NCBI GenBank assembly: GCA_937928755.1 | Contig: CALEZI010000050.1 | Span: 2,361-66,360, forward strand | Direction of reading: 5' to 3' | DNA length: 64,000 nt | From: an uncultured Rhodanobacteraceae bacterium | Lineage (GTDB): Bacteria; Pseudomonadota; Gammaproteobacteria; Xanthomonadales; SZUA-5 | Shown here: positions 59,355 through 61,094 of the stretch, piece by piece | Position numbering within the stretch: position 1 is the first letter of the stretch | How the letters are laid out: every line of letters starts with the position of its first letter | Translations under genes and position numbers: made by a program | Notes under the pieces: generated by a model | Seen by the model: only the letters and a program-made list of their open reading frames with translations | Database searches by the model: none | Told to the model about the DNA's origin: nothing

Positions 59355-61094
59355 TCATGGTTCGAACTGGCTGCAGCCGGCAGCGTCGCATTGCGCCTTG
59401 ACCCTGAACCCGAGCAGCGACAGTCGATCCGGCGCGTCGCTGGTGCCGCGCAGGCTGTCCACGTCTGCCGTGGGAACCTTGTCGCGAATCAGGATCGGCG
59501 CTTGCGTGACGCCGATTGCGCCGAGCAACAGGACCGGCTGTCCGCTGGTCTCCTGCAGTGCATAGTCGCTGCCCACCCGAGTCAGCGTGATGCGCTCGGC
59601 GACGGTGAATTTCTGCGAGAACCACTCGAGCCCCAGGGGTCGGTTGTCGATCTGGAATGGCGGTTGACGCATCAGGACGTCGTTGCTGAAGATGACGGTA
59701 TCGCCCGGTTGGACAGCCCGCGGGCCGGTCAGGCGCTGCTCCTCGAAAACGCCCACGCTCGATGGGTCGTAGCTGTGCAGCAGGCGCAACTGGTCGAGAT
59801 TGACGTGCGTGATCCGGTGAAAACGATCGCGCCAGAAGCTGTGCCTCACCGGCGAAATGAAGCTCATCGGAACCTGCAGGAACACCTGGCCGCGCAGTTC
59901 TTCCTTGCGCGGGAAGAGTTCGAGAAAACTCGACATCGCCTCGCGATAGTAGGGCTCGCGGATACGCAGGGCCTCCTGTGTCGCGCCGACCAGGTCCGCC
60001 GCCAGCACGATGAGTGCGGCATACAGATATCCCCGGCGGAAGTGGATGATCTTCTCGAGTGCAGTCGCCACCAGGACGGCGGTCAACGGCGCCAGGTAGC
60101 CGAGGTATCGGACTTCCTTGAACTCCAGCAATTGCATGCTCATCGCCAGCATGATCCAGGCGATGGCCACGTTTTGCTGCAGCGCTCGTCCGGAGCGCAG
60201 GCAGAGCACCAGCCCCGGCAGCGCCAGGCTCATGGCCAGATACCCGTAGGCCGACAGGTTCCTTGCGTACAGCCACGGACTGAAGGTCTGGTCGATCGGG
60301 CCGGTTTTCTGGGCGTACTCGACGACACCTCGATATTGCAGCCAGGGACCCAGCAGCAGCGGGTGCTCGCCAAAGGCGTAACGCAGCACCCAACTGTAGA
60401 CCAGCCATGCGATCAGGGCGCTGGCGAGCGCCGCCATGCACAGCTGCAGGACCGGGATGATGGAGGGTCGGCCACGGCGATCGCCCAACTGCAGGGTGAT
60501 CGCCACCGCGCCGCAGACCGCAACCCAGAACAGAAGGTAGGTCTGCTTCACCAAGATCATCATCGTGCCCAGCGCCACCAGCAGCAGCCAACGACTGCGC
60601 CGCGGTTGCGCAACCTGCTCGCCGGCGAGGATCAGCATCAGCAGCAGGATCACGCCGGGGAACAGGTCGTGGCTGATGAATGGCGCGTAGCTGAAGAACA
60701 GCACGGTCGGCAAAGCCGCGACGAAGGCCAGCAGTGTTTGCAATCGGGCGCCAAAGTGGCGCTTCAGGAGCATCCACACGCCAGCCAGATAGGCCATATG
60801 GAGGAGCGCCATCGTCAGATGGTGCGGCCACACGCTCAACGGGTGCAGGCCAAGCCGGTTGGCCAGGAGCTCGGCCGGCATCAGCAGCCATGCCAGCATC
60901 GGGCCACGTTGCCAGAACAGACCGTCGGTCACCCCCAGGAAGTGCTGACTGTTGACGATCGTGGCGTAACCGTCGTCCAGTTCGATCCGGATCAGGTACA
61001 GACTGGCGAGCAACCAGGCAGCGACCAGCGCCAGAATTCCGATCGCTGCCGATCGGACCCAGCGATCATGGTCGCCCGGAAGCGTGGTGTTCAT
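59355..61094 (-). CDS. GT-C-like polytopic membrane protein inserted between pilS and pilR; candidate TfpW-like pilin glycosyltransferase
   Basis: ORF 59355..61133, with start at MNTTLPGDHDRWVRSAAIGILALVAAWLL (CAT 61092-61094). The first loop after TM1 carries IELDDGYATI, an acidic DDxY motif typical of GT-C enzymes. About 11 helices precede a soluble C-terminal domain. The function is inferred only. Confidence 0.6.
   Translation of the reverse strand: MNTTLPGDHDRWVRSAAIGILALVAAWLLASLYLIRIELDDGYATIVNSQHFLGVTDGLFWQRGPMLAWLLMPAELLANRLGLHPLSVWPHHLTMALLHMAYLAGVWMLLKRHFGARLQTLLAFVAALPTVLFFSYAPFISHDLFPGVILLLMLILAGEQVAQPRRSRWLLLVALGTMMILVKQTYLLFWVAVCGAVAITLQLGDRRGRPSIIPVLQLCMAALASALIAWLVYSWVLRYAFGEHPLLLGPWLQYRGVVEYAQKTGPIDQTFSPWLYARNLSAYGYLAMSLALPGLVLCLRSGRALQQNVAIAWIMLAMSMQLLEFKEVRYLGYLAPLTAVLVATALEKIIHFRRGYLYAALIVLAADLVGATQEALRIREPYYREAMSSFLELFPRKEELRGQVFLQVPMSFISPVRHSFWRDRFHRITHVNLDQLRLLHSYDPSSVGVFEEQRLTGPRAVQPGDTVIFSNDVLMRQPPFQIDNRPLGLEWFSQKFTVAERITLTRVGSDYALQETSGQPVLLLGAIGVTQAPILIRDKVPTADVDSLRGTSDAPDRLSLLGFRVKAQCDAAGCSQFEP

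Follow-up and report, generated by a model that had tools for sequence, protein, structure and literature searches.

Two genes in a 64,000-nucleotide stretch of contig CALEZI010000050.1 from an uncultured Rhodanobacteraceae bacterium (the window) encode members of a small, previously undescribed family of inner-membrane glycosyltransferases of the GT-C type. The first, X1, is lodged in reverse orientation between the type IV pilus genes pilS and pilR, and the second, X2, lies beside ilvH (coordinates in Table 1); we call the family that contains both X. X1 and X2 are very probably active periplasmic GT-C enzymes that draw their sugar from a polyprenyl-phosphate carrier. The reading that we favour overall, while giving it about even weight for and against, is that the members linked to pilus (pil) genes act on pilin or on its glycan. 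For that choice of acceptor the case is finely balanced. To our knowledge, TfpW is the only known GT-C pilin glycosyltransferase, other pilin glycosylation systems employing O-antigen-ligase-like enzymes.

Results

X1 and X2 define a family of GT-C glycosyltransferases

The AlphaFold2 (AF2) model of X1, computed from a 61-sequence alignment, has a predicted local distance difference test score (pLDDT) of 93.8 and a predicted template modelling score (pTM) of 0.92. When this model was compared with the PDB by Foldseek, the top 35 matches were all GT-C enzymes (E 6e-7 to 4e-2; TM-scores 0.30-0.51, normalised to the query), and the matched structures include ALG12, STT3/PglB/AglB, ArnT, AftA/AftB, ALG9, Pmt4, EmbA-C and DPY19. 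The model supports a GT-C fold for X1, as a first-pass annotation of the window had suspected. Sequence searches of the PDB, with X1 alone or with the family profile, gave chance matches only. Against Pfam PMT_2, X1 scores 25.5 bits, under the 26.1 cutoff, and X2 has no match; an NCBIfam scan of X1 and X2 returned nothing useful, neither an ArnT-type match nor one to any other curated lipopolysaccharide (LPS) enzyme. Some X homologs carry a precomputed PF13231 match, and a member is entered in one source as 'glycosyltransferase family 39 protein'.

The modelled helices, together with positive-inside alternation of the loops, predict 11 transmembrane helices and a cytoplasmic N-terminus, the Arg/Lys-rich loops being residues 111-119, 160-170, 204-212, 299-307 and 351-356. 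The first helix (residues 6-34) is followed by the ELDDGY loop, which the positive-inside pattern places in the periplasm. The first-pass annotation had taken ELDDGY for a GT-C acidic motif in the first extracytoplasmic loop. The location agrees, and the second Asp (D41) is invariant (61/61), with E or D always present at position 38, but the first Asp is not conserved: its position is occupied by D in 43 of the 61 members, Y in 8, G in 5 and E in 3, and also by V or A. The loop-1 motif of the family is [E/D]-x-x-D-G-Y, in which D41 is the catalytic-type Asp. Fourteen alignment columns are invariant across the 61 sequences. The invariant polar residues H92, D143, K183, Y276, N279, R329 and Y330 are at the periplasmic face of the predicted topology, and with the N-terminus inside and 11 helices, the C-terminal domain and all invariant polar residues, D41, D423 and H426 included, would be periplasmic. 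The C-terminal domain, which is particular to the family, contains the invariant D423 and H426 and a nearly invariant Cys pair at its end; modelled alone it reaches a pLDDT of 89.4, and no significant structural neighbour of it was found in the PDB (best Foldseek E 0.25).

X2 is a paralog of X1, as had been proposed, with 37% identity over 550 aa (BLASTP, E 5e-94). The accompanying suggestion that X2, with YGDGY in place of DDGY, might have lost its activity is unsupported. X2 retains all 14 invariant columns, its EYGDGY keeps the invariant Asp, and its orthologs show conserved synteny, the ilvH-X2-glyS arrangement being kept in P0079 (80% identity), in P0081 (67%) and in locus L057 (68% identical to X2). 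We rejected loss of activity because the residue changed in YGDGY is the variable first Asp of the family. Judged from this conservation, X2 looks like a maintained, active gene. Its sister clade in the family tree consists of genes from related genomes (L008, L048/49) that sit between pilS and pilR.

A database search returned 102 X homologs, mostly unnamed metagenomic proteins, and searching 1.84 billion cluster representatives exhaustively with the family profile retrieved 329 at E ≤ 1e-3, 142 of them at E ≤ 1e-30. By these searches the X family is small and sharply bounded, and no description of it was found in the literature searched.

A conserved candidate donor module accompanies the X family

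Gene neighbourhoods were compared in 28 loci from genomes and 80 from metagenomes, with a few contigs looked up in addition; together these provided 97 non-redundant X genes in 86 loci. The commonest partner of X is a conserved block that encodes an ArnC-like family 2 glycosyltransferase (GT2), an AsnB-like amidotransferase, an ArnE/ArnF-like membrane protein of ~120 aa, and two methyltransferases of ~270 aa and ~320 aa. The module GT2 matches the NCBIfam undecaprenyl-phosphate Ara4FN transferase (ArnC) over its full length (E 1.8e-69), and a 123-aa neighbour of X homologs matches ArnE/ArnF. GT2, AsnB, the two methyltransferases and X recur as a block in dozens of loci, and a GT2 or AsnB gene lies within 6 kb of 58 of the 97 X genes. 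The module was found in Woeseiaceae, other Gammaproteobacteria, Victivallales and others, with variants in which a NAD-dependent epimerase/dehydratase replaces AsnB or PMT_2-type GT-Cs and family 4 glycosyltransferases (GT4s) are added. Across most of the lineages compared, the GT2 is 55-69% identical, whereas X is only about 30-35% identical.

Genes for AT3-SGNH O-acyltransferases adjoin the X module in L078 (16447-18426) and lie between pilR and pilA in Lysobacter L121 (3238-5241). Such neighbours hint at possible O-acetylation of the transferred glycan as well.

X genes are recurrently linked to pilus loci

A pilS/pilR, tfpZ or pilin gene is present within 6 kb of 17 of the 97 X genes (13 of the 86 loci), against a rough expectation for a random gene, by our own estimate, of below 1%. 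In the family tree the pil-linked X genes belong to several distinct clades, and they occur in unrelated gammaproteobacterial lineages. A survey of relatives for an insertion between pilS and pilR, which the first-pass annotation had recommended, showed that the slot is filled in other lineages too, and that it has four different fillings: X1 in reverse orientation in the window; an X2-like gene in L008; a fragment, an X gene and a 557-aa open reading frame in L003, L046, L052 and L109; and in L048/49 a GT41-TPR gene (tetratricopeptide repeat, TPR; 7920-9764; Pfam Glyco_transf_41, 109 bits) that is followed by two tandem X genes. X genes come after pilR in L004, L006 and L066, and directly downstream of pilA in L044; pilins adjoin a GT2-X pair in L086. 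In L054, the genes for two PilA pilins, TfpZ, a methyltransferase, ArnEF, a second methyltransferase, AsnB and X follow one another in that order, closely spaced on one strand. The whole module lies beside pilA-tfpZ in L016, a Kangiellaceae metagenome-assembled genome (MAG), and tfpZ is embedded in the module in L007, an Oleiphilaceae genome. The pilins that adjoin X genes are of the ordinary type IVa kind, with a Ser+Thr content of 13-20%, and are uninformative on the acceptor.

In relatives, the interval from pilR to pilB is a glycosylation island with AT3-SGNH, GT2 and GT4 genes and with genes of a second family, here called GT-C+TPR. These proteins of 650-680 aa, encoded directly after pilA, have a GT-C-like membrane N-terminus with FxFDD and FEHRNY motifs and C-terminal TPRs, and so resemble TfpW in both architecture and position. 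The family has >2,300 database matches, from Xanthomonadales, named only 'tetratricopeptide repeat protein'.

Downstream of X1-subfamily genes in L120 (2165-4123) and L039 (1674-3839) we observed genes for proteins of 650-720 aa with a C-terminal Peptidase_S74 (endosialidase chaperone) domain, a domain typical of trimeric fibre/tailspike proteins.

The insertion between pilS and pilR is genuine

In the independent metagenome assembly ERZ761605 (L119), a 99%-identical X1 gene is convergent with pilS across an identical 45-nt gap, the contig stopping before pilR; the pilS/X1 junction is therefore not an assembly artefact. The first-pass annotation had described pilS and pilR as usually adjacent, and they are directly so in the relatives L004 and L006 and in Lysobacter L121, as they are in Xanthomonas (PMC10333488). 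The GC content of X1 and its GC content at third codon positions (GC3) equal those of the neighbouring genes, and no flanking repeats, mobile-element footprint or foreign composition were found around it, so that X1 is not a recent foreign insertion. A tblastn search of plasmids with X1 and a comparison with PADLOC defence models gave no match.

Gene layout of the window

The gene order around X1 is nadE(-), sucD(-), sucC(-), pilS(+), X1(-), pilR(+), tfpZ-family(+), pilA(+). Open reading frame calls confirmed both 579-aa frames where the first-pass annotation had placed them, with X1 lying on the opposite strand between pilS and pilR. The stop codons of pilS and X1 are indeed close, although their separation is 45 nt (pilS ends at 59309 and the X1 stop runs from 59355) and not 46 nt as first counted. 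No terminator-like site was scored in this spacer. An alternative start for X1 is the TTG at 61133, and the X1 promoter presumably lies within the divergent region that separates it from pilR.

Table 1. Features of the window, with GT-C+TPR genes of related loci (loci named in the coordinate column)
Feature	Coordinates	Strand	Description and basis
X2	44726..46465	+	579-aa X1 paralog between ilvH (ilvIH) and glyS; BLASTP, family alignment
pilS, sensor kinase	57771..59309	+	convergent with X1; Pfam 6TM_PilS, HisKA, HATPase_c
pilS/X1 spacer	59310..59354		45 nt between convergent stop codons
X1	59355..61094	-	579 aa from ATG; GT-C-fold membrane glycosyltransferase, 11 predicted transmembrane helices; open reading frame, AF2, Foldseek, alignment
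X1 C-terminal domain	59358..59912	-	residues ~395-579; predicted periplasmic and beta-rich, mostly beta strands in the model
X1/pilR divergent intergenic region	61095..61257		between X1 and pilR starts
pilR, sigma-54-dependent response regulator	61258..62649	+	Pfam Response_reg, Sigma54_activat, HTH_8
TfpX/TfpZ-family pilin accessory gene	62764..63543	+	upstream of pilA; NCBIfam NF041437
Sigma-54 -24/-12-like element CGGCGCGGATATTGCT	63594..63609	+	38 nt before pilA ATG; 2 mismatches to TGGCAC-N5-TTGCW
pilA, type IVa major pilin	63647..64000	+	cut by window end
GT-C+TPR genes	L006 5743-7770; L008 15627-17630; L121 6004-9908

By Pfam, PilS has six transmembrane helices with HisKA and HATPase domains, and PilR a receiver, a sigma-54 AAA+ domain and a Fis-type helix-turn-helix; the two genes are 80-93% identical to their counterparts in Xanthomonadales MAG loci. 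The TfpX/TfpY/TfpZ-like gene reported before pilA was confirmed, its product scoring 207.1 bits against NF041437 (TfpX/TfpZ; cutoff 200) over model positions 1-240; the longest open reading frame of the gene begins at 62677. TfpX, TfpY and TfpZ are general pilus-assembly accessories that are also found with unglycosylated pilins, and are not glycosylation markers (PMC11841053). By itself, then, a tfpZ gene does not count as evidence for glycosylation. The position of CGGCGCGGATATTGCT upstream of the pilA start suggests a site as expected for PilR-dependent pilA; matches of equal stringency occur at chance frequency across the window, and only position favours the site. The window ends inside pilA, and the gene after pilA in the source genome lies outside the data.

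Two further genes of the window may be mentioned. The 450-aa product of sucD (54889-56241, minus strand) is a normal succinyl-CoA ligase alpha subunit extended by a C-terminal Ala/Lys/Pro-repeat tail of ~150 aa, and long SucD proteins are also present in relatives (473 aa in L004, 455 aa in L008). A third GT-C-type gene, at 1554-3311 (plus strand), encodes a 585-aa membrane protein that matches Pfam PMT_2 (60 bits) and PMT (36 bits); BLASTP detected no relationship between it and X1.

Discussion

What might a GT-C glycosyltransferase be doing between pilS and pilR? Fold, conserved residues, paralogy and gene neighbourhoods are observations, and donor type, catalysis and acceptor are inferred. 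In the pathway that we propose, the ArnC-like GT2 would load a sugar onto undecaprenyl phosphate in the cytoplasm, the AsnB-like amidotransferase and the two methyltransferases would probably modify that sugar, the small ArnE/F-like membrane protein would flip the lipid-linked sugar, and X1 or X2 would transfer it to a periplasmic acceptor. The donor genes that serve X1 and X2 would be encoded outside the window. For pil-linked members such as X1, the likeliest acceptor would be the major type IVa pilin itself or a glycan that it already carries, and X1 could be viewed as belonging to a variable island for pilin glycosylation around pilS-pilR-tfpZ-pilA. X2, which keeps its place at ilvH-glyS, may be a second active transferase that uses the same donor for another site or another acceptor. 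The candidate pilin glycosylation system of the first-pass annotation is upheld in part: the recurrent pil linkage speaks for it, the prevalence of modules without pil genes speaks against it, and pilin is a plausible acceptor.

Several observations weigh against pilin as the target. The C-terminal domain of the X family gives no clue to the acceptor because it has no structural neighbour. The presence of ArnT among the best matches of X1, and of Arn-like donor genes, fits a lipid A/LPS target equally well. In most loci with the module, pil genes are absent from the surrounding 6-10 kb, and a marine module locus that was examined in detail (L078) lies between the housekeeping genes mutS and aspS. 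Some of the closer homologs of X1 are not pil-linked: L029 (56% identity) resides in a PMT_2/GT2/methyltransferase/GT4 cluster, L039 and L120 (59% identity) are beside a Peptidase_S74 protein, and L001 (60% identity) is beside genes that, judged by eye, are apparently for an ABC transporter and an aminotransferase. In the window itself, X1 is on the strand opposite to the pil genes, no sigma-54/PilR-type or sigma-70-like promoter match was found upstream of it (61095..61257), and a tblastn search of the 64 kb for the donor module matched only tfpZ and no module gene.

The main rival to the pilin reading is that X1 and X2 are enzymes of the Arn, Rgt or Gtr type, which add a lipid-linked monosaccharide to lipid A, LPS core, O-antigen or some other glycan of the envelope, and that the pil position reflects regional variability. 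We consider this possible but rather unlikely. It would account for the conserved ArnC-like and ArnE/F-like partners, for the many module loci without pil genes, and for the stable residence of X2 in a housekeeping context, and it is consistent with the structural similarity of X1 to ArnT (5f15, 5ezm), which is among the best matches with a TM-score of 0.52, normalised to the ArnT chain, and a root-mean-square deviation of 7.8-8.9. The AT3-SGNH glycan O-acetyltransferase beside the module in L078 would also fit. A further parallel is with RgtA-D and RgtE of Rhizobium, given that several X paralogs are scattered through a genome and would draw on one donor. What such a target leaves unexplained is the recurrent pil linkage, which is ~20-fold over the rough expectation, arises in separate clades and unrelated gammaproteobacterial lineages, and extends to module genes that follow pilA on the same strand in L054 and to an X gene directly downstream of pilA in L044. 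Furthermore, none of the X genes examined had LPS-core or lipid A genes as neighbours, and X has no NCBIfam match to ArnT or to another curated LPS enzyme. If the target were LPS, the module would still represent an uncharacterised Arn-like pathway of envelope modification.

As a second alternative, the X enzymes could be periplasmic protein O-glycosyltransferases of broad specificity, comparable to PMT/GT39 enzymes, that modify several proteins secreted or exposed at the surface, with pilin as just one of these targets. The PMT_2 score of X1 just under the cutoff, the PF13231 matches of some homologs and the 'family 39' name of one, the presence of Pmt4 and Pmt1/2 among the fold matches, and the diversity of gene contexts, including that of the X1 subfamily next to the Peptidase_S74 fibre-like protein, all point in this direction. 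However, X2 has no PMT_2 match at all, the family profile retrieves no solved PMT by sequence, and the C-terminal domain resembles neither MIR domains nor any fold in the PDB, and we regard such broad specificity as quite improbable.

If the pilin reading holds, a second, structurally distinct GT-C family at pilin loci, equipped with its own donor module, would widen the routes by which pili are glycosylated, and the X family would probably constitute a new CAZy family with a new periplasmic acceptor-recognition domain. The X genes could then be tested for a part in pilus glycan variation and phage evasion, both in Xanthomonadales and in abundant uncultured marine lineages. We put forward only tentatively, and with some doubt, a more far-reaching form of the pilin reading, in which the X family represents a new, widespread route of pilin O-glycosylation: a six-gene module would supply an undecaprenyl-phosphate-linked sugar that is amidated and/or methylated, recognition of pilin would fall to the C-terminal domain, perhaps in concert with TfpZ-type proteins, and paralogs of the X1/X2 type would add sugars at different sites. 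Such a route would range from Xanthomonadales to marine-sediment bacteria such as Woeseiaceae, and would allow combinatorial variation of the pilus surface, for example against pilus-specific phages.

Comparison with known systems

TfpW, the GT-C pilin D-arabinofuranosyltransferase of Pseudomonas aeruginosa group IV strains, has 646 aa and 11 predicted transmembrane helices; a DDX motif lies in its periplasmic loop 1, a YX6PFX7P motif is also present, its C-terminal part is a large periplasmic TPR domain, and its gene directly follows pilA (bioRxiv 10.1101/2020.04.19.049825). Compared with this published description, X1 is likewise a polytopic protein of the GT-C type, with about 11 transmembrane helices and an acidic motif, in X1 a DD pair, in periplasmic loop 1; its gene likewise sits at a type IV pilin locus together with an accessory gene of the TfpX/Y/Z family, and a polyprenyl-phosphate-linked monosaccharide donor in the periplasm is either used or inferred. 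In spite of this resemblance it is very improbable that X1 is a TfpW ortholog, that is, a pilin D-arabinofuranosyltransferase with polymerase activity, as X1 has no TPR match in Pfam, a regular-expression search found no YX6PFX7P motif in X1, X2 or the other candidate proteins, the first Asp of the DD pair varies across the family, no DprE1/DprE2 was identified among the neighbours examined, the single UbiA-family neighbour (L035) best matches MenA-type prenyltransferases, and it is the separate GT-C+TPR family that holds the TfpW-like position and architecture. X1 differs from TfpW also in its length of 579 aa, in its beta-rich C-terminal domain of no matched fold, and in its location between pilS and pilR on the opposite strand rather than right after pilA; and the ArnC-like, ArnEF-like, AsnB and methyltransferase neighbours of X homologs are unlike the D-arabinofuranose (D-Araf) pathway of TfpW. 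Of the analogous but rearranged TfpW/TfpX-type system that the first-pass annotation envisaged, the GT-C enzyme and its pil linkage stand, whereas X1 has neither the TPR domain nor the proline motif and does not follow pilA.

The GT-C+TPR proteins share with X the variable region from pilR through pilA to pilB, and are sometimes in one cassette with X (L006, L031). The two families have no detectable sequence relationship (BLASTP E 0.86; hhalign probability 0.95%), and an NCBIfam scan of X1, X2 and the GT-C+TPR proteins gave no TfpW-named match.

A close parallel to the proposed pathway is the lipid A aminoarabinose pathway of ArnC, ArnE-ArnF and ArnT, in which a GT2 makes an undecaprenyl-phosphate sugar, a small flippase subunit with four transmembrane helices exports it, and a GT-C enzyme transfers it. 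ArnT is one of the top structural matches of X1, and the GT2 and flippase subunit that neighbour X match the ArnC and ArnE/F models. Unlike ArnT, X falls below the ArnT and PMT_2 thresholds and has a different C-terminal domain; unlike the Arn pathway, the X module has AsnB-like and methyltransferase genes instead of ArnA, ArnB and ArnD, and is recurrently linked to pilin genes. The combination of conserved donor genes with a far more divergent GT-C, and of multiple GT-C paralogs in one genome, is reminiscent of GtrA/GtrB/Gtr(type) and related periplasmic glycosylation systems with three components (PMC11127046). Unlike those systems, the X module is found without an O-antigen gene context, and the X proteins, rather than being unrelated serotype-specific enzymes, belong to a single coherent family and have their C-terminal domain in common.

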